Origin: Candidatus Calditenuaceae archaeon HR02
GTDB lineage: Archaea > Thermoproteota > Nitrososphaeria_A > Caldarchaeales > Calditenuaceae
Assembly: GCA_002898395.1 (NCBI GenBank)
Contig: BEHE01000007.1
Location: forward strand, 9,048 to 73,047
Direction of reading: 5' to 3'
DNA: 64,000 nt
The first letter of the stretch is position 1; each line of letters begins with the position of its first letter. The notes under the pieces are model-generated. The model made no database searches and had not been told where the DNA came from. It saw only the letters and a program-made list of their open reading frames with translations. Below, piece by piece: positions 8,647-63,555 of this stretch. A program made the translations under genes and the position numbers.

Positions 8647-8953
8647 GGGGGCGTGCGGCCCGTAGCCCTCCTTCTGTTTTAGGCGGGATTGGTCTTCTCG
8701 GCTCTCCGCGGGCCTCGCCGGCGCTTCTCATCGGCCCGGCGCGCCTTTCCCCGTCAGGGTCGCCCGTTTCATCCATTCTCCACCACTCGTCGCCGCCTCT
8801 GGTTGGCGGGTCAACCTCATCTGCGGTGGAGGGGTCTCGTTTCTGTGGCGTTGCCGTGGGTCTCCCCGCCCACCTCGCGGTGGCTGACTGCACCGGTTGG
8901 GGGGAGGAACTTCCTCGGGAGCTACCCCGTGGCCCGCCCGGCCGCTCGCCCCC
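8647..8953. ncRNA. GC-rich (about 70%) block of about 307 nt closed by a terminal stem; candidate structured RNA, identity and strand unknown
   Basis: The 5' end GGGGGCGTGCGGCC can pair with the 3' end GGCCGCTCGCCCCC. There are internal long stems such as CTCCACC...GGTGGAG. The only ORFs are low-complexity Arg/Pro-rich ones overlapping on both strands. The block sits in a 520-bp gap between folP and xdhC. Confidence 0.3.
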
Positions 8954-20831: not shown

Positions 20832-21282
20832 TTACGTAGAACCACCAATCAATATGATATAAACGTGTCTAAACCACGCCAGCTTAAAAGCAGCATTATA
20901 GAAAGTGGTGGCGAGGTGTGTGGAGCGTTTTAGCGTAGGCCACGCCCGACCGTCTAAGCGGCTCGGGCGATTGGGAGTGGCGCGCTGAGGGCGTCCGGCC
21001 TAAGCCTCCGCCCGTACACGCCCACCCCATCAACCCCCTCTTCTAGGGGAGCCCTCGTCGGGGCCCAAGGCCCGTTGCCAGGCCCTATAGGCCCCGATTG
21101 GCCGCCTATTTTTGGGAGTGGCTTCGGGCTTAGATGCTTTCAGCCCTTATCCACAGGGGCGCGGCTGCCCGGCGCCGCCCTGTAGGACGACCGGTAAACC
21201 GTTGGCCCCGGCCCTCCGTTCCTCTCGTACTAGGAGGACCTTTCCCTCAGGCGGCCCGCACCCCCAGTAGGTAGAAACCGAT

Positions 21283-21325
<43 letters not shown>

Positions 21326-21959
21326 AGGCGAGCAGCCTCACCCTTGGCCCCTGCTGCGAGGCCAGGAGGGGAAGAGCCGACATCGAGGTACCAAGCCGCG
21401 GGGTCGATGGGGACTCTCGCCCGCGACGAGCCTGTTATCCCTGGGGTAACTTTTCTGTCACCACCGGCCCCCACTGGTAGGAGCCGATGGATCGCTAGGC
21501 CCGGGTTTCCCCTCAGGACCCCTTGCGTTCGAGGGTCCTGTCAGGCCGGCTTATGCCCTTGCACTCTACAGCGGGTTTCTGTCCCGCCTGAGCCGACCTT
21601 TGGGCTCCTCCGATATCTTTTCGGAGGAGTGCCGCCCCAGCCAAACTGCCCACCAGCCGTTGTCCCAGGGTCAGGCCCTGGTTAGCGGGGCAGTCCGGAG
21701 TAGCCGGTGTTACATTGGCGCCTCCCCAGGCCCCCGGAGAGACCTGGATCGACGGCTCCCGGCTACGCTATGTACTCCAGACCACTCCGCAGCAACTGGC
21801 TGCAGTAAAGCTCCACAGGGTCTTCTCTCCCCACTGGGGGTTCGTGGACTGTTCGCCCACGTTATGTGGGTTCACGGGGCTCCGGGCCGGGACAGTGGGG
21901 CCCTCGTTGATCCATTCATGCACGTCGGAACTCACCCGACAAGGCATTTGGCTACCTTA

Positions 21960-22700
21960 AGCATGCCCGACCGAATGGTCGGGGTTGGACCATATCATCA
22001 CCCATTAAGGGTGCGCGGCGTATGGTCTCTGAGGATCCCGCCCTCAACTAATATTTTCCGGAGTTTCTCCGCCTTTTCAGGGTGTCTGAAACCCACCTTC
22101 TCCGAGAACTTCTCCACATTGTCCCACCCCATCACGGTTAGCCTCCATTGATAGTGTCTTCCCCATGTGTGGGGTTTTTTACGGTTATAGGTAGATGATA
22201 TCTCGTTTAACTGCAGTATGTGGTGTGCCTCTACAAGCACTTTTTTCGCGACCATGTCGATGCTGACGTAGGGATAGCGAAACTTCTTCATGCCCTGAGT
22301 CTGAACATCTATCCCGCAGTATCCTTCACTGTCGAACAGCCCCTTCACGACGTCGATATCGTGTTTAAACAATTCCGGTATCTGCGCGCTGACGAGCTTC
22401 CGCCCCTTCGGGAACCCGATCCTCAACAAGAAGTCATGTACCTTCCTAACATTCGTGGAGACTATGTAGAGGCTTTTACTTGCGCGCCGTATGTTTGGCT
22501 TGACTCCGAAAAGCTCTTCAACCGTGGCGGCGATAAAGTTGGCGAACTCGAAGTTAGGGTCTCGGCAGAAGACCGTGTAATAGTTGCCGTAGACGCCTCC
22601 GTCTCCCAGCATCACTCCAATGAGGTAGGCTAGACTCATCTGCTGTCCGCTGACCTTCAGCCTTTATAGCTGTTTCACAGGGCGGTTTCCTGCGGGTCGG
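21960..22700 (-). mobile_element. rRNA intron 1 (archaeal BHB-type, domain IV, just 5' of the GGTAGC...AAGGTAGCC block) carrying a homing-endonuclease ORF
   Basis: rRNA sequence conservation breaks between about 22700 and 21960 and resumes with CTTAAGGTAGCC. The segment contains a full LAGLIDADG ORF. Boundaries are approximate. Confidence 0.6.
21998..22639 (-). CDS. LAGLIDADG homing endonuclease (double-motif, intron-encoded)
   Basis: Motif 1 LAYLIGVMLGDGG and motif 2 VVKGLFDSEGY. 213 aa, the size of I-DmoI/I-PorI-class enzymes. Confidence 0.85.
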   Translation of the reverse strand: MSLAYLIGVMLGDGGVYGNYYTVFCRDPNFEFANFIAATVEELFGVKPNIRRASKSLYIVSTNVRKVHDFLLRIGFPKGRKLVSAQIPELFKHDIDVVKGLFDSEGYCGIDVQTQGMKKFRYPYVSIDMVAKKVLVEAHHILQLNEISSTYNRKKPHTWGRHYQWRLTVMGWDNVEKFSEKVGFRHPEKAEKLRKILVEGGILRDHTPRTLNG

Positions 22701-23444
22701 ATTCACGGTGCTACGGGATTGTTACCCGCGCGGGGTACCCATAGCCTCCTCCTTCCCCGCATACAGCCGCGTTTAACGACCCCCTTGAACTTGAGGGTCA
22801 GAGTTACCCCCGGCGCTAACCGGCCCTTATCCCGGTTGGACCCGGGGTTCAGGTACCGGTGCTGGCCAGGATTGAGGAGCCGTTCAAAGCCTTTCGGCCT
22901 AGCGGCTCCCTATGTTTTTATTAAACAGTCAGGACCCCCTTGTCACTGCGACCTACCAACCCACCCTCACCGGGCAGGAAGGCAGGCACCCCTTCTCCCG
23001 AAGTTACGGGGCCAATTTGCCGAGTTCCCTAGCCCGGAGTAACCCCAGACGCCTTGGCCTTCTCAGCCAGGGGCACCTGTGTCGGATCTAGGTACGGTCT
23101 CTCGGGATCGTTCCGGGCTCCCTTTTCACTGGCCCCAGGGTCCAGCCGAAGCGGCCTTAAGGCCGCCCCATCCCTCCATTCACCTGGTTCTCGCCATTAC
23201 GGCTCTCCCCAGGCTTGGGAGGTTAGACAGGGCTACGGCCCTGCTCGGCCTTACCTGAGGCGTCGGGAGCCCGGCTTGCGTCGCCGCACCTACCCGAGAG
23301 GCACCGGAATCTTAACCGGTTTCCCCTTCGGCCTACCCGGTTAAGGTCGGCCTTAGGACCGGCTTACTCCCGGCTGACGACGCATTGCCGGGAAACCCGT
23401 GCCCTTCCGGCGGAGGGGATATGGGGAGAGGTCGCAGGACCGTG

Positions 23445-24005
23445 TTCTCCCAAAAAGCGAACAGGTCAAGAAGGAAGGTATTGTAAACTCTGATTGAAAG
23501 TGTCCCGAATTTTGAACGTGAACTCCGTAAGCCCCACCTAACTGAAGGCTTACGGAACTGTGATAATGGTATGTTTAACAAGTTAGACCAGTATTCCTCC
23601 AGTTCCTTCACCCTGTCCGTCCACTCGTCCTTGCGGAGCTTGATTTGTAGCCTAGGCCTTAGCTCGCTTCTCGCTACTCCGAGTGTTTCGAGGAAGTTTA
23701 CCATAGCGAGTAGCTTGTTAGGATCGCTGTTGACGAATTCGAACCTCGTCTTCACAGTTTTAGGTCTTTTAGTGCCTTCACCAGCATAAAGACCAAGAAC
23801 GTACCGAATAGCACCGCTGAGACGTAACGGCGAATCTTCATTGCGCCTACGCGGCCGTTCCCGTACTTGAACCGAAGAGTCACCTTATCGTCCTCTACGG
23901 TCTTCTTAAGTACTTTGGTGTGGTCTAACGTCTCCGGAATGAGCTCTGCTAGGTCTACGTAGCTCATCCTTTAAGTAGAGTTACGTGACAACAAGTAGTT
24001 AAAAG
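23445..24005 (-). mobile_element. rRNA intron 2 (domain III region), about 560 nt, with a decayed endonuclease ORF
   Basis: AT-richer insertion between exon sequences GAGAGGTGCAGGGCCGTC (5') and GGTCCTGCGACCTCTCCCC (3'), which are mutually complementary and form a helix around the junction. The flanking exon sequence aligns to conserved domain III blocks. Confidence 0.5.
23455..23967 (-). pseudogene. Degenerate, frame-split homing-endonuclease remnant inside intron 2
   Basis: Two adjacent minus-strand ORFs in different frames (23752-23967 and 23333-23755). The second has a segment, DPNKLLAMVNFLETLGVARSEL, that resembles the second LAGLIDADG helix region of I-DmoI (NKALLEIVSRWLNNLGV). No intact first motif is present. 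Confidence 0.35.
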
Positions 24006-25198
24006 TTTGACGGCCCTGCACCTCTCTTTCCCACCCCTCTTCGCTGTCTACTACCACCGGGATCTACATTAGCGGCCGGTCCACGGGACCTCACGGCCCC
24101 GCTTCTACCCAACCGCTACGCCCCCCTACCCCCACCCACGCAGCGCGTGAGTGAGCCCGGGTTTCGGCGGCCCGCTTAGACCCGTCAATTTTCGGGGCCC
24201 CCATCCTCGGCGGGTAAGCTGTTACGCACTTCTTAGCTGATGGCTGCTTCTAAGCCTACAGCCCCGCTGTCTCAGGATGGAGACGCCCTTTGGTTTGTCA
24301 CTTAGCGGGCACTTAGGGGCCTTAACCCGCGGTCTGGGTTGTTCCCCTCTCGGTCCCGGAGCTTACCCCCGGTACCCCACTCCTGGGATCTACGGTGCCC
24401 GCGGATTCGGAGTTCGAAAGGAGAGTGGAGCCTCATCGGCCCCTTGCTCCCCCATCGGTGCTCTACCCCGCGGGCAGCCTCCCCCAGGGCTGTCCTGCGA
24501 GACACTTCGGGGGGAACTAGCTATCACCGGGCTCGATTAGCTTTTAACCCCTAGCCCCAGGTCAGGGGACCGATTTGCACATCAAGACCCCTATTCGGGC
24601 CTCCACCAGGGTTTCCCCTGGCTTCGCCCTGCCCAGGGCTAGATCGCCCGGTTTCTAGCCTCACGGGCGTGACTACAGGCCCTTTCAGACCCCGCCCCTC
24701 GCCGGAGCACACTCCGGCTGCGGGCATGTCGGTTTCCCCACGCCTACGGGCTTTCAGCCCTTAGGCTCGCCACACCCGTGAACTCCCCGGCCCGTGATTC
24801 AAGACGGAGTGCACGACCCTGGGATTGTCCCCACTCGCCCCTCACCGGGGCTTCGCAGGGAATGCCCTTTCGGGCCGTGCTCGTCTGTTACCAGCCGGTT
24901 TCAGGCGCTTTTCACCCCCCTCTCGGGGTACTTTTCACCTTTGGCTCACGCTACTGGTCCACTATCGGTCTTGGGACGTATTTAGCCTTGGAGGCCAGTG
25001 GCCCCCAACTTCCCGCACCATATCCGAGGTGCGGTACTCGGGGACCGGAGCATCGCCCCTCCAGCCTTCGCCTACGGGGCTATCACCCTCTCTGGCCCCC
25101 CATTCCAGGGGAGTTCGGCTCAGCATTCAGGGCGGGCCTCCGGCCCCATAACCCCACACTCCCCCCGAGTTAACCTCGGGGGGTTCGGTTTGGGCTGC

Positions 25199-25232
<34 letters not shown>

Positions 25233-25589
25233 TTTGATTTCTTTTCCTCCCCCTACTTGGATGCTTCCGTTCGGGGGGTTCCCGATCCCGGACTGAAGGC
25301 CCGGGAACGAGGTGGCCGAAGCCACCCCAGGAGATCCCATTAGGAGATCCCCGGATCAACGCCCGCCTGCGGCTACCCGGGGCTTATCGCAGCTTGCCAC
25401 GTCCTTCTTCGGCGCCCAAGCCGAGGCATCCACCGGCTGGCGTACCCCCGCTTAGTGCCAAGGCGCGGCCTACTTCGCCACGCTCCACACACCTCTGCGG
25501 CGCGGTCATAGGAAAGTATTAGCCTCCTCCCGCATTCATGCCCCTCAGGACTTCATGGCTGAGGAGCAAACATCTCCGTGCGCAATAGA

Positions 25590-25630: not shown

Positions 25631-27037
25631 CTAGTCTGTGATTAATACTCTAAGCTCCTCTATATCCTCTTGGAAGCTCGATCTAAGCTTGTCAACTAGG
25701 TTGACACCGTTGATCCGGAGGCGCCCCTTAACTACAATGTCCACGTCTCCGTAAACCTCGTCGATATAGTCTACCTCCTCCCATGTAGAGAGCTTCAGAA
25801 CCATCTTTGCGGCATCCGCTTGGGGGCGAAGCTTGAGAAGAATGTAAGCCCGCTCCTCTCCGAAGAATCGTCTCACCAAGTCTTCTTTGACCTCTCGCCC
25901 TAAAGCTTCACTTAGATAGCGGGCTAGCTCTTTTGGAGAGCCCCTCCTCCCGGTCGCCACAACCCTTTTGACGATCTCCTCCACAATCCTCCTGGCATCT
26001 ACCTCATCTAAGTTGTGGCCGTTTAGTTTAGCTATCTCTAGGATCAGCTTGTGACTCATATATGGGGTCACAGCATATTTCAGGGCATCCACATCGTATT
26101 CGAGCTTCTTTTGAGGCATGTAGCCTTCAGGCCTCTTAATGACCATTGACTGGTGGACCCCCGCCCTGATAGTCTTGGCCTCATCCGAGAGGGGGTGGCG
26201 CCAAGGTATCTGCACGCTTGTGAGCCTAGAAAACTCGCGATAAATTCGTGCCAGCTCCTCCCGCCTCACCCCAAGGTCATAGCCATAAACATCTTGGAGC
26301 GGTGCTACAACCTCGTAAAGGTCCGCTATCCCATTTCTATCACCGATACCTAGGATTGTGACATGCGCCTCAGCAGCCCCAGCGAGTATGGACTCAATGG
26401 TGTTGGCCGATGCGAGGCCATAGTCGTTGTGAAAGTGTGCAGCGATGGGGAGGCGGCTCCTCTCAATACAATATTCTATGAACTCCCTAGCATCGCGTGG
26501 CGTCATGAGCCCTGCTGTATCAGGCACGCTGAGGAGTGTCGCGCCGGCAGACTTCAGCTCGCCGGTAAACGTGAGAAGATCGTCGAGGACGCCGAAGTTG
26601 CGCTCAATGTAGAGCCGCGACGCATCTTCGTAGGTTACCCGGACATACTTGAGCCCCAAAGGCTTGACAAGCTCAACCGCCTCCAGCATCCTAGCCTTAG
26701 CATCATCATAGTTCATACCACCAAGCTTGTAGTTTAAGTGTAGCTGGGAGACGGCCAAGTATAGGGCTACGCCGTATAAGTTATACCTGCTCATTGCCTC
26801 AATATCATTTCTGTATGCCCGGCCATGCATAACTACTTGGACGCCGTTATCGTCTAAGAAGTTAACTAATTTGGCGCCTTCCTCGTAGGATGTCCTGGGA
26901 GGATAGTCGACAGTCACCTCAACACGCTTTAGACCCGCCTCCACGAGCAGGCTGGCAACCCGGAGCTTCTTATGGATGGGCAACACCTTGTAGAGCTCAC
27001 CTTCCCTCAATGTGGAGTCGAGGAGGACGGATGGCAA
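25631..27037 (-). CDS. LeuA-family DRE-TIM synthase (2-isopropylmalate/homocitrate/citramalate synthase-like)
   Basis: LDSTLREGE at the N-terminus and the HFHNDYGLASANT metal-binding motif. 468 aa. Confidence 0.75.
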   Translation of the reverse strand: MPSVLLDSTLREGELYKVLPIHKKLRVASLLVEAGLKRVEVTVDYPPRTSYEEGAKLVNFLDDNGVQVVMHGRAYRNDIEAMSRYNLYGVALYLAVSQLHLNYKLGGMNYDDAKARMLEAVELVKPLGLKYVRVTYEDASRLYIERNFGVLDDLLTFTGELKSAGATLLSVPDTAGLMTPRDAREFIEYCIERSRLPIAAHFHNDYGLASANTIESILAGAAEAHVTILGIGDRNGIADLYEVVAPLQDVYGYDLGVRREELARIYREFSRLTSVQIPWRHPLSDEAKTIRAGVHQSMVIKRPEGYMPQKKLEYDVDALKYAVTPYMSHKLILEIAKLNGHNLDEVDARRIVEEIVKRVVATGRRGSPKELARYLSEALGREVKEDLVRRFFGEERAYILLKLRPQADAAKMVLKLSTWEEVDYIDEVYGDVDIVVKGRLRINGVNLVDKLRSSFQEDIEELRVLITD

Positions 27038-50013: not shown

Positions 50014-51339
50014 CTACTGGATCTTATCGCTAACGCCTGCTAGGGATAGGAACTCCTTACTCAGCCGGGTGAGGGAGTAGAGTTCAACTCCAGCCTCGCG
50101 GAGGAGCTTCTCAGCACCCTCATTCCTATCAAAGATCACAAAATATTTGTCTATCACTCCCCCCTCCTCCCGAACAGCCTTTACACACTCAAGCGCACTA
50201 TTACCGGTGGTGACGACGTCGTCAACGCCCACATAGAGTGTCCCGGGCTTGACTACCCCCTCTACCTTTCTCTCAAGCCCGTGAGCCTTTCTCTCCATCC
50301 TAACGTAGACAAGCCCCACGCCGAGTCTGTCTGCGACAATGCTCGCTAGAGGTATTCCAGCCGTGGCTGTCGTCGCAATCTCGAAGCCAGACCTGCCAAC
50401 ACGTCTAGATACCGCCCCGGTCATGAGCCTGGCTATGAGCGACCTTGAGACTGGGTCAGAGTATAGCGACCTACAGTCTATGTAGATTCGGCTCCACCCT
50501 CCACTCGAGAGTTGGACCGGCTTCTCATATATGTTCAAGACTCCCTTCGTCCTGATTATCGCCCTACTGGCGAGGATGAACTCCCTCTGTCGCGATAGGG
50601 TCTCTGCGATGTTTGCAGCCTCCGCTACCGGGTCCTCTGCAAGTATTATCGTCCTCCCCACATTGATCAGTAATCTCTCACCACCGGCCCTGATCATGGG
50701 CATCGGATCCCCTCCTTGGGCGCCAAATCCCGGTGAAAGGATTATTGCCTCCTCACCAACTCTCTGCCTGATCTCTGCTATCTCCCCTTCATCGAGGCTT
50801 GACGAGAGCCCAACCACGAACCCATCCACCCCCGCCTCAACCCCTTCCTCAATAAACCTCCAGTAGAGTGGCTCACCATCCACTCTGCGACGGAAGTATT
50901 TCTCGCCGTATCTGCCCGATGGATGGGCGAGTAGGAATACGCCTAGCCCATGCTCATGCGCCTCATCCACCACCTCTCCGACGTTGCCGAAGAGGGGGTT
51001 GAGGGTAAAGGCATCGTAGCCCAGCCTCGCAATGGTGTTTACGCCGGCCTTGGCTGATTCGCCGATGTCCCCGAGCTTACAGTCCAGAATAGTTAAAAGG
51101 CTCAGTTTCCTCGCCAGCCCGGTTATGGCCCTGTGCCCATCCTCTCCGAGGCCGCGCAAGTGATTCTCGTTCAGCTTAACGGCTGAGCAAAACCTGCCGA
51201 GCTGCTGGATCCTATCGAGACAGAATCTAAGCCTTAGGCTTGGGTCGTGGTAGACCCACGGCGGCGGGTCGAGTCCAAGACATAGAATGCTGCCAGAGAT
51301 CTCGACGACCCTGTCATACCTCTCCTTGAGCAAAGACAC
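50014..51339 (-). CDS. pyrF-pyrE: Bifunctional OMP decarboxylase (N-terminal) :: orotate phosphoribosyltransferase (C-terminal) fusion
   Basis: The N-terminal 230 aa carry ODCase motifs (LDCKLGDIG, LSPGFGAQGGDP, VGRTIILAEDPVAEA). The C-terminal 200 aa carry the OPRTase PRPP motif (LYVGVDDVVTTGNSALE). It is one continuous 441-codon ORF. Confidence 0.7.
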   Translation of the reverse strand: MSLLKERYDRVVEISGSILCLGLDPPPWVYHDPSLRLRFCLDRIQQLGRFCSAVKLNENHLRGLGEDGHRAITGLARKLSLLTILDCKLGDIGESAKAGVNTIARLGYDAFTLNPLFGNVGEVVDEAHEHGLGVFLLAHPSGRYGEKYFRRRVDGEPLYWRFIEEGVEAGVDGFVVGLSSSLDEGEIAEIRQRVGEEAIILSPGFGAQGGDPMPMIRAGGERLLINVGRTIILAEDPVAEAANIAETLSRQREFILASRAIIRTKGVLNIYEKPVQLSSGGWSRIYIDCRSLYSDPVSRSLIARLMTGAVSRRVGRSGFEIATTATAGIPLASIVADRLGVGLVYVRMERKAHGLERKVEGVVKPGTLYVGVDDVVTTGNSALECVKAVREEGGVIDKYFVIFDRNEGAEKLLREAGVELYSLTRLSKEFLSLAGVSDKIQ

Positions 51340-52685: not shown

Positions 52686-52937
52686 GTGGTCAACGTCAGA
52701 ATAGTTTACTGCGTGCCATGCGGACACCTGCCTAGGGCTATGGAGCTTGCAAACCACCTCCTACAGACGTTCGGCATGGAGTACAACAAACGCTTTTCAG
52801 TAACCCTCGACACATCTGACGGCGGAACCTTTGAGGTTTACATCGATGACGTGAAAGTGTATTCGAGGAAGGAGCAGGGAGGTAGATTCCCCACTGCGGA
52901 AGAGATCGTTAAAGAGGTCAGGAATAGGGCTAGGTAG
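52686..52937 (+). CDS. Rdx/SelW-like small redox protein (CxxC)
   Basis: 83 aa with a CVPCGH motif near the N-terminus, typical of the SelW/SelT/Rdx fold. Confidence 0.45.
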   Translation: MVNVRIVYCVPCGHLPRAMELANHLLQTFGMEYNKRFSVTLDTSDGGTFEVYIDDVKVYSRKEQGGRFPTAEEIVKEVRNRAR

Positions 52938-53454
52938 ACCGCTGTACTTCTCTCTCCAGAAACTCGATAGCCAGTTTAACGTGCTCATCAGGTTTAACCC
53001 CATCGATTATTTTGACTATCCTACCCTCAGGAGATATTATGAAGGTCTTCCGCTTCGCGGTCTTGAATAGGCTATTGTACGCGTCGAAGAGACGTGATAT
53101 CTCGCCGTTCTTGTCACTGAGCAGTGGGAATGTTAGGTTGTATTTCTGTGCGAATTTCTCGTGGCTCTTAATGTCGTCGGTGCTTATACCATAGACTTCA
53201 GCCCCACATCTTGTCAAAACACCCATGTTATCTCTAAAGCTACAGGCCTCTGATGTACACCCAGGCGTATTGTCTTTTGGGTAGAAGTAGAGTATTATAT
53301 AGCGGTTCTTTCCGAGCCTCGTGCCAAGCCTGAACTCTCCTCTTGTTGAGGGGAGAGAGAAGTCAGGGCAAATGTCACCCACTTCCATATCCAACAATAC
53401 CCTACTCGATGAGCGAGTGGTGGTGTCCCCCACAGCTGCAAGTCGACTGCTCAT
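52930..53454 (-). CDS. bcp: Peroxiredoxin, Bcp-type (thiol peroxidase)
   Basis: YFYPKDNTPGCTSEACSFRD peroxidatic-Cys motif. Confidence 0.8.
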   Translation of the reverse strand: MSSRLAAVGDTTTRSSSRVLLDMEVGDICPDFSLPSTRGEFRLGTRLGKNRYIILYFYPKDNTPGCTSEACSFRDNMGVLTRCGAEVYGISTDDIKSHEKFAQKYNLTFPLLSDKNGEISRLFDAYNSLFKTAKRKTFIISPEGRIVKIIDGVKPDEHVKLAIEFLEREVQRST

Positions 53455-53996: not shown

Positions 53997-54251
53997 GTGA
54001 AAGAGGCTCCATCGGCTGTCTCGATACTTGAGCATGAGCTGGTCCCGAAGCACGAGATTATGAGCCCAGAAGAGGTCGAAGAGCTATTAGGCAGATATAG
54101 GATAACTCTGAACGAGCTTCCAAGGATACTTGCCAGCGACCCAGTGGTACGCGAGATAGGAGCCAAGCCCGGCGACGTCCTTAGAATACATAGAAGATCA
54201 CTCACCGCCGGACTCTCATACTACTATAGAGTGGTGGTGAGGGAGGAGTGA
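53997..54251 (+). CDS. rpoH: DNA-directed RNA polymerase subunit H (Rpb5 homolog)
   Basis: 84 aa directly upstream of rpoB with a stop/start overlap. The C-terminal RpoH fold motif is [11 protein letters not shown]. Confidence 0.8.
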
Positions 54252-57200
54252 AGGCCAAGCCTGCCTCTGAGCAGCCAATTCTAACGAGCGAAGACTTGAT
54301 GAAGGTCGCCGAGGCCTATATCGACGACGCCGGCCTAATCAACCATCACCTAATGTCGTACGATTACTTCGTCAAGGAGGGTCTCAAGAACCTAATAATG
54401 AGTATGAGCCCGGTCGAGATTAAGGCGAGAGGTAAGGCAGAGCTAAAGTTCGAGAGTGTCGAGATAGGATCTCCGAGGATCGTCGAGATTGATGGGATGG
54501 TCAGGGAGGATGTAACGCCAATGGAGTGTAGGCTAAGAAACCTAACCTACTCGGCCCCAATCTACGTCAAGATGAGCCTATATGTTGATGACAAGCCGGT
54601 AGTTGTTGCTGAGCGGGTCCTTATCGGCTCGATCCCCATCATGGTTAAGTCCTCTATCTGTCCGCTGAGCAGGATGACTCCTGAAGAGCTGGCGGCTATA
54701 GGTGAAGATCCGTTAGACCCGGGTGGCTACTTCATCATAAACGGTTCAGAGAGGGTTATAGTGGCGATAGAGGATCTCTCACCTAACAAGGTCCTCGTGA
54801 CTGTGAAGGATCAGAAGGAGAATCCCCAGTACTCGGCGATGCTTCTCTCATCCTCGCAGGGTAGGATGAGTAAGGTTGAGGTCACCTATAAGCCCGGAGG
54901 CCCCATAAAGGTCTTTTTCTCGAGGATCTACAAGGGTATTCCCTTAATAGTAATGTTGAGGGCTCTCGGGCTGACTAAGGATAGCGAGATAGTTAATCTA
55001 ATCTCGAATAATTCCGCGATACAAGAACTTCTCGAGCCATCCTTCAGGGAGGCTGAGGGTGTTGAGACGGCGGATGACGCCCTAGTGTACATAGGGAATA
55101 GGATAGCTTTTGGCTATGCCGAGGAGTATAGAAAACAGCGGGCTGAGCAGATGATAGACAACATATTCATGCTCCACGTAGGGACGACCCCCGACGCGAG
55201 ATACAAGAAAGGGATACTCCTGTGCGATATAGTCGGTAAGCTACTGGAGACAAGCGTGGGCCTCAGGAAGCCCTCGGACAAGGACCACTATGGGAACAAG
55301 AGGATAAAGCTTGAGAATCCTTTGCTCACAGAACTATATAGAATGGCGCTCACCAAGCTGATCCGAGACGTCAAGTATCAACTTGAGAAGAGCATGGCAT
55401 CACGCTACCCGATCACGATTTCACCATTCGTTAAGCCCAGCATAGTTAATGACGTTGTTGTCCACGCATTTGCGACTGGGAACTGGCCGGGTGGAAGGGT
55501 TGGCGTAACACAGCTGTTGAATAGAACCAATTATCTCGCCACCATCAGCCATTTGAGGAGGGTTCAGTCGCCTCTGAGTCGTAGCCAGGCACACTTCGAG
55601 GCAAGGGATCTGCATGGGACGCACTGGGGTAGGATATGCCCTGTTGAGACGCCTGAGGGTGCGAATTCCGGGCTTGTCAAAAACTTTGCTCTCGGCGCCG
55701 AAGTTACAGTCCCACTCTCGCAGCAGGACAGGATCGAGTTGAAGAGAAGGCTCGTCGACCTTGGCATGGTCGGCGTGTTTGTAGCTCTTGACGAGCGGAG
55801 GCGCGGACGGAAGAGGACATACGGCGCAAAGGTCTACCTCGACAACGAGCTGATAGGCTACCACCCAGACGGTCGGGCGCTTGTCCGCGAGCTTAGAGCC
55901 CTCCGCAGAAAGGGTGAGATAAGCCCCGCCGTCAATATCTGTCTAAACGAGTACCCACACATCCAAGAAGTCGAGATTTACACCGACGAAGGTAGGGTAA
56001 GGAGGCCGTTAATAGTGGTGGAGGATGGTGTGCCCAGCATCTCGAGGGCGATGATAGACTCGCTGTCTAATGGGACATTCAGGTTCAGGGACCTAGTCTC
56101 AATCGGTGCTGTAGAGTTCTTAGACGCGTCTGAGGAGGAGAACGTCTTGGTCGCCATCTCTCCGGAAAGCTTGACACCTAATCACAACTATCTAGATGTC
56201 TCGCCTCTCCTAGTAATGGGTGCAGTAGCCTCAATCATACCATACAGTAACCATAACCAGTCGCCGAGAAACGTCTACGAGGCCTCAATGGCTAAACAGG
56301 CACTAGGAGTTCCCCTAACGAGCCTAAACCTGAGGACAGACTCTAGGCTCCACCTACTGGTCTACCCCCAGAAGCCTCTAGTGTATACGCGCTTCATGAA
56401 GCGGCTCTCACTAACAGAGAGGCCAATCGGCCAAAACCTGGTCGTTGCTGTCTTGACGGGCTATGGATACAACATGGAGGACGCTGTTGTCCTTAACAAG
56501 TCATCTATTGAGCGCGGCGTGGGCTACAGCATCAGCTATAGGACCTATGAGGTGGAGGCTAAACAATACATTGGCGGAGAGAAGGATAGGCTTGGCATAC
56601 CTGAACCGAGTGTGAGGGGCTACAGGGGCGAGCAGTGCTACCGCGCCCTTGACTCCGATGGGCTTGCCTTCCCCGAGTCAGAGGTTGTGGGAGGGATGGC
56701 TATCGTCGGAATGGTCAGCCCACCCAGGTTTATGGAAGAATACATGAGAGCCCCTGCCAGGGAGATGGTCTGGAGAGACTCGTCTGAGGTCGTTAAGCCT
56801 ACAGAGGCCGGTGTGGTTGATACCATCTTTGTTACTAAGACGCTCGAAGAGACCACTCTGGTCAAAGCCAGGATCAGAACTGACTGCTTTGCAGAAATTG
56901 GGGACAAATTCGCGTCAAGGCATGGTCAGAAGGGTGTTGTAGGCATGCTCTTTCCGCAGGCCGACATGCCCTACACAGCCAGCGGCATCGTACCCGACCT
57001 GATAATTAATCCACACGCATTCCCATCGAGAATGACTGTCGGACAGCTGATTGAGAGCCTCGCTGGGAAACTCGCAGCGCTGAAGGGTGAGGAGGTCGAC
57101 GGCTCACCATTCATAGGCAAACCCCTCGAGGAGATAGAGGCTGAGCTAGAGGCTCTCGGATTTAAGGGGGCTGGAACTGAGGTAATGTACGACGGCCTTA

Positions 57201-57643
57201 CAGGCAGAAAGTATGAGGTTGAGATATTCGTAGGAGTGGTGTATTATCAGAGACTACACCATCTGGTCCGCGATAAGATACACGCTAGGTCTAGGGGCCA
57301 GGTCCAGATACTGACGAGGCAGCCTACTGAGGGTCGCTCCCGCGGTGGAGGACTGAAGTTTGGGGAGATGGAGAGAGACTGCCTAATAGCTTACGGGGCA
57401 AGCTACCTACTCCTCGACAGGCTGCTCGAGCAGAGCGACAAGTATTCCGCATACTTCTGCGAGAAGTGTGGTCTACCGGCATACTACGACCTTAAGCAGA
57501 ACCAGCTTATCTGCCCAGTGCACGGTAAGGACTTCTCAGGCGTCCAGGTCTCTATGTCGTACGCATTCTTCCTCCTCCTGAACGAGCTCTTAGCCATGTG
57601 TATCTATCCAAGGCTCATCTTCGAGGAGGTGGGTGGGAGCTGA
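54248..57643 (+). CDS. rpoB: DNA-directed RNA polymerase subunit B (unsplit B'/B'')
   Basis: 1131 aa with the conserved Rpb2 blocks, including [13 protein letters not shown], the PSRMT(V)GQ region and a C-terminal Zn ribbon (CEKCG...CPVHG). Confidence 0.9.
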
Positions 57644-60600
57644 GGGGAGTAATATCGGCGATTAAGTTCGGCATACTTCCGCCAAACCTAATCAGGAGTA
57701 TGAGTGTTGTAGAGGTACAGAGCCCAGACACCTATGACGAGGACGGGATGCCGATACCGACAGGCGTCATGGACCCAATGCTGGGTACTCTAGAGCCTGG
57801 ACAGAGGTGCAAGACCTGCGGAAACACCTACATCTCTTGCCCGGGGCATTTTGGGCACATAGAACTTGCAGTCCCCGTTATACACATAGGATTCGTCAAG
57901 ATTATTCATGAACTGCTGAGGTGTACGTGCAGGTCCTGCGGTAGACTACTGCTAAGCCAGAGCGACATCGAAGAGACTAGGGCTAGACTAAGGCAGCTGA
58001 AGCAGGAGGGGAGGATGTATAGACACCTCTTCTACAAGGTTAAGCAAAAGGCAATGGCCACCCAGACCTGCCCACACTGTGGTGAGAAACAGTTTAAGAT
58101 AGAGCTGGAGAAGCCTTCCACTTTTGTCGAATCAACTCCGCAGGGGGCGGTCAGGCTTACAGCAGGCTCCGTGAGGCAGAGGCTTGAGAGGATACCGGAC
58201 TCAGACCTTGAACTACTCGACATCGACCCCCAGTCGTCACGTCCGGAGTGGATGGTCCTAACAGTCCTCCCCGTTCCCCCTGTCTATGTAAGACCCTCAA
58301 TAACGCTTGAGAGCAATTACCGCTCTGAGGACGACCTAACCCACAAGCTTGTCGACATTCTGAGGGTAAATCAAAGGCTGAAGGAAAGCATAGCTGCGGC
58401 GGCACCCTCACCCGTCATAGCCGAGCTCTCAGACCTACTACAATATCACGTAACAACCTACATCAATAACGAGACGATAGGAGTCTCACCGGCCCAGCAT
58501 AGGTCGGGCAGAATACTGAAGACGCTCGCCCAGAGGCTTAAGGGTAAGGAGGGGCGCTTCAGGCTTAACCTTTCTGGGAAACGCGTCGACTTCTCCGCGC
58601 GCACGGTCATCTCACCCGACCCCCTCATAGACTTCGACGAGGTGGGTGTCCCACTCGAGATAGCTATGCAGCTCACCGTGCCGGAAGTCGTCACTCCATG
58701 GAATAAGGAGAAGCTGAAGGAGATGGTGAGGAACGGGCCTGACAAGTATCCAGGAGCAAAATACGTGATAAAGCCTGACAGGAAGATGATTCGTTTGAAG
58801 AATGTTCAGAACTTGGATGAGGTTGCTGAGAGCCTTGAGGAAGGGTGGATTGTGGAGAGACATCTAAGAGACGGCGACATTGTACTCTTCAATAGGCAGC
58901 CGAGCCTACACCGAGTCTCCATTATGGCTCACCGCGTCAGAGTACTCCCCTACAAGACCTTCAGGCTCAACTTGGCGGTATGCACACCCTATAACGCCGA
59001 CTTCGACGGCGACGAGATGAACCTCCATGTCCCGCAGAGTGAGGAAGCTCAGGCGGAGGCCAGACTCCTACTACAGGTCCAGCGCAATATAATCTCCGCC
59101 AGATATGGCGCACCGATTATAGGTGCGATCAGAGACTTCTTGACCTCGCTCTACCTGTTGACAAAGGACGGCACATATGTTGATAAGCAGACGCTAGGAT
59201 ACCTCCTCTCAGCCATAGGCTATAAGGGTGAGCTACCTCCACCTGAGAAGACAGATCCTCAGCCGCTATGGAGTGGTAAGCAGGTGTTCAGCCTACTCCT
59301 GCCACCCACCCTATCACACAGGGTTCAGTCCAACTTCAGCTCAGATACACAGGTAGTAATAGAGAGGGGGAAACTTGTCCAGGGATTTATTGATAAGGCT
59401 ATAGTGGGTGTAGAAAAGGCCAACAGCGTACTGCACAGAATATTCAGGGAATACGGCTACGAAGAGGCTGCAAGGTTCCTCAACGGAGTTATCAGGCTCG
59501 CAAACACATACTTAAACCTCCGCGGCTTCACATTCGGCATAGAGAGTCTAACGGTGCCCGAGGAAGTATACAGACAGGTCCAATCATACCTCCATAAGAT
59601 GGAGAAGGAGTTCCAGCAACTAAAATCCGACTATGAGAAGGGGAGACTAGAGGTTAAGCCCGGTGAGACTCCTGAGAAGGCTTTTGAGTCCGAGATACTC
59701 GAGCTACTCTCCAGGACTAGGGACGAGATTGGCGGCTTCGTTAGGAAGTTCGTCTCCACAGACAACCCACTAGTCGTCATGGCGAGGACCGGTGCGAGGG
59801 GAAGCTCCCTGAACATAGACCAGATGATTGCAATCGTGGGTCAACAGGCAGTTAGGAGGGAGAGGCCTAGCAGGGGATTTACCGATAGGGTCTTAACATT
59901 CTTCGACAGGGGCGACCTATCTCCTCGTGCCAGGGGCTTCGTCTACAACCCATTCATCAAGGGCTTTGACCCGATAGAGTTCTTCTTCCACCTGATGGGC
60001 GGCAGGGATGGGCTTGTCGACACTGCCGTCAGGACGCAGCAGAGCGGCTACATGCAGCGGAGGCTCATAAATGCTCTCGAATCACTCTACGTAGAGTTTG
60101 ACGGCTCGGTCAGGATGTCAGACACTAAGAAGATAGTTCAATTCCTTTACGGCGAGGATGGTGTTGACCCTGGCAAGAGCGACCACGGTAAGCCGTTTAT
60201 CCCAGCCAATATAATCTCGCAAGTCCTGATGGAGGAGCGGGACACAGGAAGCCCGGCTGCACCAGATGATGTCGAGGCTGTTGCCAAGAAGTATGAAGGG
60301 CTAATGCCCTTGTCAGCTATTCAGGAGTTATCGGACGCCTGTCTCAAACTCAAGGTCCCGAGGGGTGCTGTCGAGAGGGTTTTCGCGACTGCCTACCGTG
60401 TATATCTCCAGAGCATGGTTGAGGCGGGAGACCCTGTCGGCATTATCGCCGCCCAATCCCTAGGGGAGCCTGGAACCCAGCTCACTCTCAGGACCTTCCA
60501 CTTCGCTGGTGTTAGGGAGCAGAGCATTCTCGTAGGACTCCCCCGGCTTATCGAGATAATCGACGCCAGGAGAGCCCCCTCCACACCTATGATGTATATC

Positions 60601-61446
60601 TATCTTAAACCTCCTTACAATCAGGACTCTAAGCTCGCCAGGAAGATCGCCAGCAGGCTCCAATACATAAGTGTCGGAGACGTTGTAGATGAGATTAGGA
60701 TAGAGGCGCGAACCGGCAACATAATACTCATGCTCGACGAGGAAGCCTTGAGGGAGCTGTCCGTGACGAGGGAGGAGTTGAGCCAGGCCTTGAAGCCTTA
60801 CAGGCCCAAGTTCATCGAGTCTAAACGGGCTGTCTCCCTAACTGTTAAGGAGGTTGAACATGATTCTCTAGAGCTTTTGAAGACCAGGATACTTAACACG
60901 AGGCTGAGGGGTGTGAAGAGGATAACAAAGGCTGTGGTCAGGAAGAAGAGTGGTGAATACCTCATACAGACAGAGGGCTCAAACCTCAAGGAGGTCATGT
61001 CCTTGCCTGAAGTTGATTTCAGGAGGGTTAGGACGAATGACATTCACGAGGTGGCCTCTGTCCTCGGGGTTGAGGCTGCGAGGCAGCTCATAGTTGAGGA
61101 GGCTCAACAGCTCTTGAGGGAGCAGGGGCTCGACGTAGACGTCAGACACCTGCTATTACTGGCAGACGCCATGACCCTGGATGGAAGGGTTAGGCAGGTT
61201 GGGAGGCATGGTGTCGTGAGGCTGAAGTCGAGCGTCCTTGCGAGGGCTGCCTTCGAGATTAGCTTCCAGACACTGGTTGAGGCTGCGGCCTCTGGCGAGG
61301 TCGACCACCTGCAGGGAAACATTGAGAGGATATTAATAGGCAGGGAGGTTCCTGTCGGTACTGGCAGGGTGGACCTCCTAATGAGATATAGCGACCTCCT
61401 GCCGAACCAGAATAGCAGCTCCGGCTCAGATGCAGGTGAGAAGTAA
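57598..61446 (+). CDS. rpoA: DNA-directed RNA polymerase subunit A, with the A' and A'' portions fused in one ORF
   Basis: N-terminal Zn-binding clamp ([17 protein letters not shown]) and catalytic [10 protein letters not shown]. The bridge-helix region is [23 protein letters not shown]. The A''-type trigger loop [21 protein letters not shown] follows in the same frame with no stop. The listed GTG start overlaps rpoB by 46 nt; the true start is uncertain. Confidence 0.85.
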   Translation: [1282 protein letters not shown]

Positions 61447-61742
61447 TGGACGTGAGGAAGGAGCTTGGGGTTATCAGGCTTACCGGGAAATACCTCATCG
61501 GGTTTCGGCAGAGCTATATAAGCGTAGTGAGGAGGTCAGCCAAGGCTGTGGTCCTAGCCAGTAACTGCCCGGATGACATGAGGCAGAAGCTGGAGCTTGC
61601 AGCTAAGATCTCTGAAACGCCTATAATTTACTCGGACCTGACAGCCAGGGAGATAGGCCAGGCGCTAGGTAAACCGTTCAGCGCATCAACCGTTGCGATA
61701 ATCGACCCCGGCAACTCGTCACTATTGGGCGAGGCTAGTTGA
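61446..61742 (+). CDS. rpl30e: Ribosomal protein L30e
   Basis: 98 aa. The VVLASNCPDD and GKPF motifs match L30e. Its position after rpoA is canonical. Confidence 0.8.
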   Translation: MDVRKELGVIRLTGKYLIGFRQSYISVVRRSAKAVVLASNCPDDMRQKLELAAKISETPIIYSDLTAREIGQALGKPFSASTVAIIDPGNSSLLGEAS

Positions 61743-62173
61743 CGGACGAGGAGATCAAGCTAACAGAGCGTGAGATGAGGCTTGTATCGCTTTTCCAGAG
61801 CTACACTGGGGCGACAGTGCTGGACTGCCTAGCCGACGATGATCAGATTGTCTTCTTGGTTAGGGAGGGCGAGTTCGGCCGCGCCATCGGTAAGAAAGGA
61901 GTAAAAATACAGGAGTTGTCAAACCTATTGAAGAAGAGGCTGAAGGTCGTGGAATACTGTGGCGACGCCGCCTCCTTCCTATCAAACGCGGTGAAACCCG
62001 CAAAGGCACGGGAGGTCAAGATAGTTCCCGGCAAGGACGGGCAGCTTACAGCCATCATCAGGGTTGACCCAGAGGATAAGGCGATGGTGATTGGGAGGGG
62101 CGGCCGGAACGTGGGGATAGTGCGGCGAATGGCCAAGAGACACTTCAAGATCGAGCGCGTCGTGATAGAATAG
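61739..62173 (+). CDS. nusA: Archaeal NusA homolog (two KH domains)
   Basis: 144 aa with the KH GxxG motifs GKKGV and GRGGRN. Its position after rpl30e is canonical. Confidence 0.8.
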   Translation: MTDEEIKLTEREMRLVSLFQSYTGATVLDCLADDDQIVFLVREGEFGRAIGKKGVKIQELSNLLKKRLKVVEYCGDAASFLSNAVKPAKAREVKIVPGKDGQLTAIIRVDPEDKAMVIGRGGRNVGIVRRMAKRHFKIERVVIE

Positions 62174-62469: not shown

Positions 62470-63555
62470 GTGATAGCAACTATTTTTCGCCGAGGGGTCT
62501 TAAGCTATTTCTATACCGGGGTCTCCGTCTTAGTCGTGAGCCCTGTAGCAAAGAGGGGTGAGGCTCGCGAGGACGGTGAGGAGGTGGACATCTACAGCCT
62601 AGCAGATCTGAGGGGCGTGGGTGAGGCTACTAAAGAGAAGCTAGCCTCCATAGGCATATACAGCCTGCTGGACCTGGCAGCGGCCTCCCCCCGCGAGCTG
62701 GTTGAGGCTGGTATTGATGCGAAGAAGGCCGAGGAGCTCTGTCTCCAGGCCAGGCTCCTGCTGGTCAGCAGCGGGTTCCTAGACTCGGAGCTTATGACTG
62801 GGAAGGAGGTCTTGGAGAGGAGGAAGAGTCTTGAGAGGGTAACTACTGGTTGCCTGTCTCTTGACAACTTGCTGTTGGGCGGGGTGGAGACTCAGGCTGT
62901 GACTGAGCTGGTAGGCGAGTATGGGTGTGGGAAGACGCAGATATGCCACACCCTCTGCGTCACTGTCCAGCTCCCGAGGGAGAAGGGCGGCCTCTCCGCG
63001 GGGGCAATATACATCGACACCGAGTCGACTTTTAGGCCTGAGCGGATCTACGAGATAGCCAAGGCCCGGGGCCTAAACCCTGACAAGGTCTTGGAGAATG
63101 TCGTGGTGTCGGAGGTATATAACTCGAGCCACCTCCAGCTCGTTGTTAAAGAGCTTGGGAGGCACTTGGAGAAGTATAAGGCTAGGCTCGTTGTCGTAGA
63201 CTCGATCATCTCACACTTCAGGGCAGACTATGTGGGTAGAGAGAATCTCTCTGAGAGGCAGCAGAAGCTTAACGCGACGCTCCACCGGCTGCTCAGGCTG
63301 GCCGAGATAAGGAATGTGGCGGTAGTGGTTACTAACCAGGTCATCGGAGACCCCGGCGCCTTTTATGGGAACCCCACGAAGCCCAGCGGAGGGCACGTCC
63401 TAGCCCACAGCACGACGTATAGAGTGTTCCTGAGGAGGGGGCCGGATGACACGAGAGTAGCCAAGATAATGGACAGCCCCTACCACCCGTCTGACCTAGA
63501 GGCGCGATTTAGAATCTCGGCGAAGGGCATAGAGGACGCGGAGCCTAGGCGGTAG
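62470..63555 (+). CDS. radA: DNA repair and recombination protein RadA (Rad51/RecA homolog)
   Basis: HhH N-terminal domain, Walker A GEYGCGKTQ, Walker B LVVVDS. The sequence is collinear with archaeal RadA throughout. The likely true start is the in-frame GTG near 62584. Confidence 0.85.
   Translation: MIATIFRRGVLSYFYTGVSVLVVSPVAKRGEAREDGEEVDIYSLADLRGVGEATKEKLASIGIYSLLDLAAASPRELVEAGIDAKKAEELCLQARLLLVSSGFLDSELMTGKEVLERRKSLERVTTGCLSLDNLLLGGVETQAVTELVGEYGCGKTQICHTLCVTVQLPREKGGLSAGAIYIDTESTFRPERIYEIAKARGLNPDKVLENVVVSEVYNSSHLQLVVKELGRHLEKYKARLVVVDSIISHFRADYVGRENLSERQQKLNATLHRLLRLAEIRNVAVVVTNQVIGDPGAFYGNPTKPSGGHVLAHSTTYRVFLRRGPDDTRVAKIMDSPYHPSDLEARFRISAKGIEDAEPRR

Follow-up and report, generated by a model that had tools for sequence, protein, structure and literature searches.

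The largest subunit of RNA polymerase was encoded in the window (the whole stretch of DNA that was analysed, 64,000 nucleotides in length) by a single gene. This gene was very probably an ordinary, functional, unsplit rpoA of an aigarchaeote (Caldarchaeales, Nitrososphaeria), which lay in a standard operon, shared the state of its whole clade and likely started at position 57640. An earlier note, made from the letters of the sequence, had described a fusion of the A' and A'' parts, and one uninterrupted open reading frame with all five Rpb1 domains was indeed found. The gene and its main elements were located as follows.

57598..61446, + strand: rpoA (unsplit Rpo1/RpoA) as listed, 1282 codons from GTG 57598
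57640..61446, + strand: rpoA, probable coding sequence, 1268 codons
58993..59022, + strand: catalytic motif (NADFDGD site), aa 466-475, found by string search inside Pfam Rpb1 domain 2
59998..60066, + strand: bridge helix, aa 801-823, found by string search and conserved in the alignment
60451..60513, + strand: trigger loop, aa 952-972, found by string search and conserved in the alignment

The listed frame ran from GTG 57598 to the TAA at 61444-61446 with 0 internal stops; by arithmetic from the base composition (about 53% G+C), a run of 1282 codons free of stops was estimated to have a probability of ~1e-24. The GenBank entry GBC71084.1, from Candidatus Calditenuaceae archaeon HR02, was identical to the product, and the window very probably derives from this organism. 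Pfam Rpb1 domains 1-5 (PF04997, PF00623, PF04983, PF05000, PF04998) occurred in order within the one ORF at aa 19-1212, far above the cut-offs. The score with the NCBIfam A' equivalog NF006336 was 1239.9 bits (cut-off 819) and that with TIGR02390 was 1225 (cut-off 1042.55); the A'' equivalog TIGR02389 matched the same product with 425 bits (cut-off 420.65). The bridge helix and the trigger loop were in one frame, as the note had stated. Moreover, the NADFDGD site, both of these elements and the N-terminal zinc-binding cysteine motifs were all present by string search and conserved in the alignment. As far as the sequence indicates, the catalytic and mobile elements of RpoA were intact. The product would be one polypeptide of ~1268 aa, in which A'/Rpo1N and A''/Rpo1C are joined collinearly without an extra linker.

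The order of genes in the window was rpoH-rpoB-rpoA-rpl30e-nusA. The neighbours of rpoA and the elements around its start are given below.

53997..54251, + strand: rpoH, which encodes the Rpo5/Rpb5 C-terminal domain and opens the RNA polymerase operon; Pfam RNA_pol_Rpb5_C, E 1.8e-30
54248..57643, + strand: rpoB, unsplit, 1131 aa; Pfam Rpb2 domains 1-7 in order; TGA stop at 57641-57643
57625..57631, + strand: SD-like GGAGGTG within the 3' end of rpoB, 8-9 nt ahead of codon 57640; read from the sequence
57640..57642, + strand: CTG, probable true start of rpoA, overlapping the rpoB stop in CTGA; homologous to the start position in relatives
61446..61742, + strand: rpl30e; Pfam Ribosomal_L7Ae; its ATG shares 1 nt with the rpoA TAA (TAATG)
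61739..62173, + strand: archaeal nusA; Pfam KH_2 and KH_5; its TTG overlaps the rpl30e stop (TTGA)

The stop of rpoH overlapped the start of rpoB in GTGA. The order rpoB-rpoA-rpl30e-nusA was the same in relatives L081-L090, in which the flanks ended short of rpoH. Insertions in the 23S rRNA were also considered, and cmscan on sub-ranges gave overlapping model coordinates without clean boundaries.

The listed GTG 57598 overlapped the rpoB stop by 46 nt. The earlier note had pointed to this overlap and to an unclear start; the overlap was present as listed and the start was indeed unclear, but the overlap is most likely not real and a product of mechanical ORF calling. At the position homologous to 57640, TTG was found in L001, L081 and L090 and ATG in L082-L085, and the proteins of these relatives began MRG(I/V)ISAIKFG. 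Furthermore, GAGGAGGTG was conserved in all the relatives whose DNA was examined at the rpoA start site (9/9), and GGAGGTG may act as a ribosome-binding site. Translation of rpoA most likely starts at 57640 rather than at the listed GTG 57598. Initiation there would place the start codon after GGAGGTG and in a 4-nt overlap with the rpoB stop, an arrangement which fits termination-reinitiation, and the overlap and the SD motif would couple the translation of the two genes in this way. In archaea, termination-reinitiation has been documented where a 4-nt overlap follows an SD motif (Huber et al. 2019, PMC6728339). The ATGA-type gene pairs of that study share the 4-nt NTGA overlap and the SD motif in the upstream gene with the rpoB/rpoA junction, and the neighbouring junctions GTGA, TAATG and TTGA of the window resembled them. 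The start in the rpoB/rpoA overlap is CTG, which a word search did not find mentioned in PMC6728339, and coupling at this junction is a prediction.

A start at GTG 57598 itself is rather unlikely; it would lengthen the N-terminus by 14 residues and make the 46-nt overlap with rpoB genuine. The extension was not conserved, and an in-frame TGA lay inside it in L001, L087, L088 and L089, although the frame of the window was open from 57598. GTG is a canonical start and was used by the deposited GenBank entry, but the sequence upstream of it, cttcctcctcctgaacgagctcttagccat, had no purine-rich motif. Moreover, 0/5 checked loci with a canonical start (L001, L081, L082, L084, L090) started upstream, and the N-terminus of all homologues lay at most a few residues from ...G(I/V)(I/V)SAIKFG. 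In L087, L088 and L089, CTG occupied the position equivalent to 57640, an in-frame TGA was located 18 nt upstream, and no ATG, GTG or TTG occurred between the two. The upstream in-frame TGA of the sister assemblies was CGA in the window alone, and this difference is what makes GTG 57598 formally usable. In these three sister genomes, rpoA had been cut short by the annotators because the conserved start position holds CTG. The deposited annotation of the window gene (1282 aa, "subunit beta'") probably misplaces the start and names the product in the bacterial style.

CTG generally initiates translation weakly, which counts against a start at 57640. It was present at the start position in the window and part of its Calditenuaceae subgroup, in contrast to TTG or ATG in relatives. 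The chances are about even that rpoA has no canonical start in this subgroup (the window/HR02 and three independent assemblies) and that a CUG within a CUGA overlap is used, presumably by SD-assisted termination-reinitiation, with obligatory coupling to the translation of RpoB. Under the CUG reading, the TTG at the same position in sister strains indicates that CTG would be a recent change tolerated by the cell. If true, a CUG start that can be reproduced on an essential gene with coupled translation would make a minor but useful case for the annotation of archaeal start codons; the apparent CUG start was the only point of the gene that was mildly new. Metagenome pattern scans for the rpoA start region gave no match. 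A -1 frameshift at the rpoB stop, leading to an RpoB-RpoA fusion, was also considered; rpoA is in the -1 frame, but no slippery heptamer was visible by eye in GGTGGGAGCTGAGG, and this candidate was rejected.

The point equivalent to the canonical split was examined by alignment to archaeal Rpo1N and Rpo1C, which located it at aa ~879-883, between the bridge helix and the trigger loop, where the note had expected it, and the assembled sequence had no interruption there.

60229..60249, + strand: equivalent of the canonical A'/A'' split, aa ~878-884; frame continuous, no stop

Residues 5-876 of 880 of Sulfolobus Rpo1N corresponded to RpoA aa 18-877, and residues 14-391 of 395 of Sulfolobus Rpo1C to aa 893-1263. 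In the three alignable split loci (Hadarchaeota, Hodarchaeota and Methanosarcinales-labelled), the ends of A' and the beginnings of A'' fell into the same columns, ~878-884. For the split loci of Thermoprotei and Woesearchaeota, the terminal peptides were compared without alignment and agreed with a split point at aa ~880; the end of Rpo1N and the beginning of Rpo1C in PDB structures mapped to the same place. Neither a linker nor a stop nor a frameshift was seen in the sequence or the alignment at nt ~60229-60249. The stop and new start between bridge helix and trigger loop that characterize the split A'/A'' type were absent. ATG 60229 (Met878) was the sole canonical start codon in frame around the split point. 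It was rejected as a vestigial A'' start: the residue varied among close fused relatives (E, M, S or another), and no SD motif lay upstream.

The substitution pattern was consistent with one coding sequence. The differences between rpoA and L001 at codon positions 1/2/3 were 102/60/567 for the whole gene and 9/8/34 at aa 850-905, and the alignment had 1 gap column in 1268. The dominance of third-position substitutions across the junction indicates that the frame is translated. The frame across the junction was also open in at least nine independent assemblies with 81-97% aa identity, and the four assemblies compared codon by codon had 1 to 10 gap columns relative to rpoA. In 9/11 split loci, A' and A'' shared a frame with one stop codon between them, so that one base error could mimic a fusion. 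Nevertheless, an assembly or sequencing artefact, in which a real stop or frameshift at the A'/A'' boundary had been lost, is extremely improbable and appears effectively refuted by conservation: the same open frame occurred in those assemblies and in 69 species-level loci, the substitutions across the junction were those of coding sequence, and no A''-type start with an SD motif was found at the junction, Met878 not being conserved. Independent assemblies of the same strain were sought by exact look-ups of the window RpoA and RpoB in the contig index, which gave no match. An exact look-up of rpl30e led to the 1.65-kb contig L086, which was 99.15% identical and began at 60310, just past the junction.

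The split A'/A'' type is that of the Crenarchaeota, the Euryarchaeota and most DPANN and Asgard archaea. Each of the 120 best database homologues of RpoA (120/120) consisted of a single protein of 1247-1288 aa in which all five domains were present. One ORF crossed the junction in 69/80 related genome loci, including every Nitrososphaeria, Aigarchaeota, Bathyarchaeia and Geothermarchaeota locus among the 80. The other 11/80 loci were split, and all of them were outside the Nitrososphaeria/Aigarchaeota/Bathyarchaeia/Geothermarchaeota clade; no split rpoA was found in the nearest relatives (Calditenuaceae, other Caldarchaeales) among the loci examined. The window RpoA was a member of a subgroup of Calditenuaceae with 81-97% identity. 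A rough neighbour-joining tree of RpoA, computed without bootstrap or maximum likelihood, placed the window and L001 as sister to Aigarchaeota, inside an all-fused clade.

Fused RpoA in Ca. Caldiarchaeum subterraneum, Thaumarchaeota, Korarchaeota and Bathyarchaeota has been published (PMC3082918, PMC4084955, PMC5484517), and an RpoA "fusion" row stands in Table 1 of PMC3082918. The fused form has been in the literature since 2008-2011, and papers of 2010-2017 list it. The unsplit rpoA of the window is already known and is a normal, published hallmark of the Aigarchaeota/Thaumarchaeota/Bathyarchaeota clade. The suggestion that an unsplit A subunit is exceptional among archaea was wrong for this clade, in which all the close and moderately distant relatives examined were unsplit; close relatives were routinely fused by the counts of homologues and loci and by the published papers. 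The expectation that the trait is lineage-informative was borne out: the unsplit gene assigns the window to the Aigarchaeota/Thaumarchaeota/Bathyarchaeota clade. An unsplit rpoA is a classic marker in the debates on the root of Archaea and the archaeal ancestry of eukaryotes. Here it only confirmed the origin of the window in that clade and added nothing new to the root/ancestry debate.

It is almost inconceivable that the fusion is a recent, secondary event of this lineage alone, unknown to science so far and with a special likeness to eukaryotes: secondary fusions of rpoA do occur elsewhere, in Pacearchaeota (PMC5484517), but the gene was fused in all sampled Aigarchaeota, Thaumarchaeota, Bathyarchaeota and Geothermarchaeota, which formed one clan in the RpoA tree, the fused state is long in print, and the tail of RpoA had no heptad-repeat C-terminal domain.

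The unsplit RpoA of the window was a single ORF (~1260-1280 aa) of the same kind as that of Ca. Caldiarchaeum subterraneum, Thaumarchaeota (Nitrosopumilus, Cenarchaeum, Nitrososphaera), Korarchaeota and Bathyarchaeota. The order of domains and the position after an unsplit rpoB were the same, and there was no structural difference. RpoA of Aigarchaeota had 62-70% identity to that of the window; the figure was about 53% in Bathyarchaeia and about 48% in Nitrosopumilales and Nitrososphaerales. A paper on the cultivation of Calditenuaceae (PMC12979851) had no mention of HR02, rpoA, RNA polymerase or intron in a word search.

The split Rpo1N/Rpo1C of Sulfolobus/Saccharolobus and Thermococcus (PDB 2WAQ, 2PMZ, 4QIW, 8CRO) was collinear with the window RpoA, which scored about 1000 bits against Rpo1N, scored about 335 bits against Rpo1C and had the catalytic motif, the bridge helix and the trigger loop in common with them. 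Rpo1N and Rpo1C come from separate genes and form separate polypeptides, with the cut at the equivalent of window aa ~880, whereas the chain of the window was continuous, with no inserted linker. Eukaryotic Rpb1/RPC1, to which the window RpoA scored about 850 bits, is also a single polypeptide across the split point. Unlike Rpb1, however, the window RpoA had neither a heptad-repeat domain nor eukaryote-specific insertions. Its length of 1268-1282 aa was equal to archaeal A' plus A'', as compared with 1390-1984 aa for the Rpb1/RPC1 chains in matched structures, and it was nearer to archaeal A'/A'' than to Rpb1.

The largest RNA polymerase subunit (RpoA) of the window was encoded within an operon, the features of which are listed below. 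The three protein elements were located by string search in the rpoA translation.

Features of rpoA and its operon in the window
53997-54251, forward strand: rpoH, upstream of rpoB (ORF list and Pfam)
54248-57643, forward strand: unsplit rpoB, 1131 codons, directly before rpoA
57598 (GTG) to 61446 (TAA, 61444-61446), forward strand: rpoA ORF, 1282 codons (mechanical ORF list)
aa 466-475 of RpoA, forward strand: catalytic motif
59998-60066, forward strand: bridge helix, aa 801-823
60451-60513, forward strand: trigger loop, aa 952-972
61446-61742, forward strand: rpl30e, directly after rpoA
61739-62173, forward strand: nusA, after rpl30e

The whole rpoA ORF was translated, and no internal stop was found. 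The chance of a stop-free run of this length at 53% G+C was estimated by us as about 1e-24; hence, the open frame was no accident. Rpb1 domains 1-5 were arranged in order along the single ORF (Pfam), and the A' and A'' equivalog models both matched its one product above their curated cut-offs (NCBIfam). The earlier note had described one uninterrupted A' + A'' gene with the bridge helix and trigger loop in a shared frame; both strings were found in that frame, and this structural interpretation of rpoA as a fused gene was correct.

The canonical A'/A'' split point was located by using the A' C-termini and A'' N-termini of five split genome loci. Three of them (Hadarchaeota, Hodarchaeota, and Methanosarcinales-labelled) were alignable with the window and placed the cut at aa ~879-883 (nt ~60229-60249), and the Thermoprotei and Woesearchaeota terminal peptides, which were judged by reading outside the alignment, agreed with the same cut. 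According to the solved structures, aa 18-877 aligned with Sulfolobus Rpo1N (880 residues) from residue 5 to 876, and aa 893-1263 with Rpo1C (395 residues) from residue 14 to 391. The split and fused forms were collinear at the cut in the alignment, and the fused form had no extra linker. Met878 was rejected as a relic A'' start because the residue varied among close fused relatives. Relative to L001, a close relative with 91% identity, the differences at codon positions 1/2/3 were 102/60/567 over the whole gene and 9/8/34 over aa 850-905, and only a single gap column occurred in 1268. Given this third-position dominance and the near absence of gaps, the frame is under purifying selection straight across the junction.

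The implied rarity or novelty of the fused gene was not correct. The best 120 protein-search matches were all single proteins of 1247-1288 aa with all five domains, and the named ones belonged to Nitrososphaerota, Aigarchaeota, Caldarchaeales, Thaumarchaeota, or Bathyarchaeia. A one-genome-per-species collection returned 80 loci, in which the junction was judged by stop-to-stop ORF analysis. One ORF crossed the junction in 69, among them all loci with the label Nitrososphaeria, Aigarchaeota, Bathyarchaeia, Nitrosocaldus, Nitrososphaera, Nitrosopumilus, Cenarchaeum, or Geothermarchaeota. The other 11 were split and carried the labels Hadarchaeota, Hodarchaeota, Methanosarcinales, Woesearchaeota, and Thermoprotei. 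In a rough neighbour-joining RpoA tree, the window grouped with L001, the pair was sister to Aigarchaeota (67% identity to the window for Geocrenenecus and 65% for SKYB129) within a single clan of exclusively fused sequences, and the split ones lay outside. RpoA was reported as a fusion in Ca. Caldiarchaeum subterraneum, Thaumarchaeota, and Korarchaeota and as split in Crenarchaeota and Euryarchaeota (Nunoura et al., PMC3082918). A single rpoA in Thaumarchaeota was also described by Zhalnina et al. (PMC4084955), and A-type and A'A''-type polymerases were compared, with fused Thaumarchaea and Bathyarchaea included, by Da Cunha et al. (PMC5484517). Furthermore, GBC71084.1 (1282 aa), which was in the 90%-identity cluster of the best match, was identical in sequence to the window ORF product and was deposited as 'DNA-directed RNA polymerase subunit beta'' [Candidatus Calditenuaceae archaeon HR02]'; the window thus very probably belongs to that public metagenome-assembled genome, and the fused product is already in GenBank. 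A second assembly, ERZ1669417, was 99.15% identical to the window over 60310-61962. The unsplit gene is a character already known throughout the clade, and in this lineage it is nothing unusual.

In nine of the 11 split loci (L054, L056, L059, L062, L063, L066, L075, L077, and L080), A' and A'' were in the same frame with a single stop between them; hence, a single codon can be all that separates a split gene from a fused one. L075 and L077, labelled 'Methanosarcinales', clustered with Woesearchaeota in the RpoA tree, and archaeal rpoA contigs had been binned as Methylomirabilota bacterium (L013) and as candidate division WOR-3 bacterium (protein P0126). All four are probably mis-binned or mislabelled contigs.

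Only one point was mildly new: this essential gene reproducibly had CTG at the start position that is conserved and overlaps the rpoB stop. All close homologues began with MRG(I/V)ISAIKFG or at most a few residues away from it. In the DNA, the corresponding start codon was TTG in L001, L081, and L090, where it overlapped the rpoB stop (TTGA), and ATG in L082-L085, one or two bases past that stop. A conserved GAGGAGGTG preceded the start in all seven loci. No canonical start was present upstream of it in the five loci checked (L001, L081, L082, L084, and L090), and L001 had an in-frame TGA 18 nt upstream. The window had CTG at this site (57640-57642), forming CTGA with the rpoB stop, and GGAGGTG at 57625-57631; the remaining operon junctions were GTGA, TAATG, and TTGA. 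CTG is not a one-off error, since it was repeated in three further independent assemblies, L087 (ERZ6864471), L088 (GCA_038741355.1), and L089 (GCA_042137655.1), with 95.5-96.2% protein identity to the window. In each of these three, an in-frame TGA lay 18 nt upstream, and the stretch from there to the conserved N-terminus contained no ATG, GTG, or TTG; the annotators accordingly shortened the gene to 1246-1261 aa. The only difference of the window from them was CGA in place of the TGA, which left the frame open back to GTG 57598 and produced the 46-nt overlap with rpoB.

The doubt of the earlier note over the initiation codon was justified. Initiation at 57640, a site placed by homology, is the best reading and would yield a 1268-aa product, with CUG as the putative start codon. 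Alternatively, a near-cognate ATA or ATT a few codons downstream may be used. GTG 57598 may serve in the window genome only, but no purine-rich motif precedes it in the window sequence as read directly. With initiation at 57640, a coupling of the rpoA start with termination of rpoB would be probable, by analogy with archaea in which it was documented where an SD motif precedes a 4-nt overlap (PMC6728339).

Immediately after nusA lay radA (62470-63555, forward strand), an order repeated in the closest relatives L081-L083, L087, and L090. In many archaea, rps12, rps7, and elongation factor genes follow nusA. The listed radA start, GTG 62470, gave 361 aa and probably lies some 22 codons upstream of the true one, since RadA of the relatives had 339-342 aa.

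Elsewhere in the window, a complete 23S rRNA gene (20952-25457, reverse strand) measured 4506 nt against the 2987-nt Rfam model, indicating some 1.5 kb of inserted sequence, probably archaeal rRNA introns. An ORF inside the gene (21998-22639, reverse strand) was homologous to LAGLIDADG homing endonucleases (Pfam E 3e-11), and a second (23333-23755, reverse strand) had no Pfam match. No SSU rRNA gene occurred anywhere in the 64 kb, and an HMGL-like ORF (25631-27037, reverse strand) lay directly upstream of the 23S gene; hence, the 16S and 23S genes appear unlinked. ARAGORN found no tRNA genes in the whole 64 kb; such genes could be absent, or the search could have overlooked archaeal tRNAs that are split or contain introns. 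Archaeal RNase P RNA was found at 8651-8949 (reverse strand; Rfam RF00373, 156.8 bits). A 441-aa ORF (50014-51339, reverse strand) with an N-terminal OMP decarboxylase and a C-terminal phosphoribosyltransferase domain resembles a pyrF-pyrE fusion. At 52686-52937 (forward strand), an 83-aa Rdx-family (SelW/SelT-like) protein was encoded that contains a CVPC motif, adjoined on the opposite strand by a putative peroxiredoxin-like ORF (52930-53454), assigned from its sequence only.
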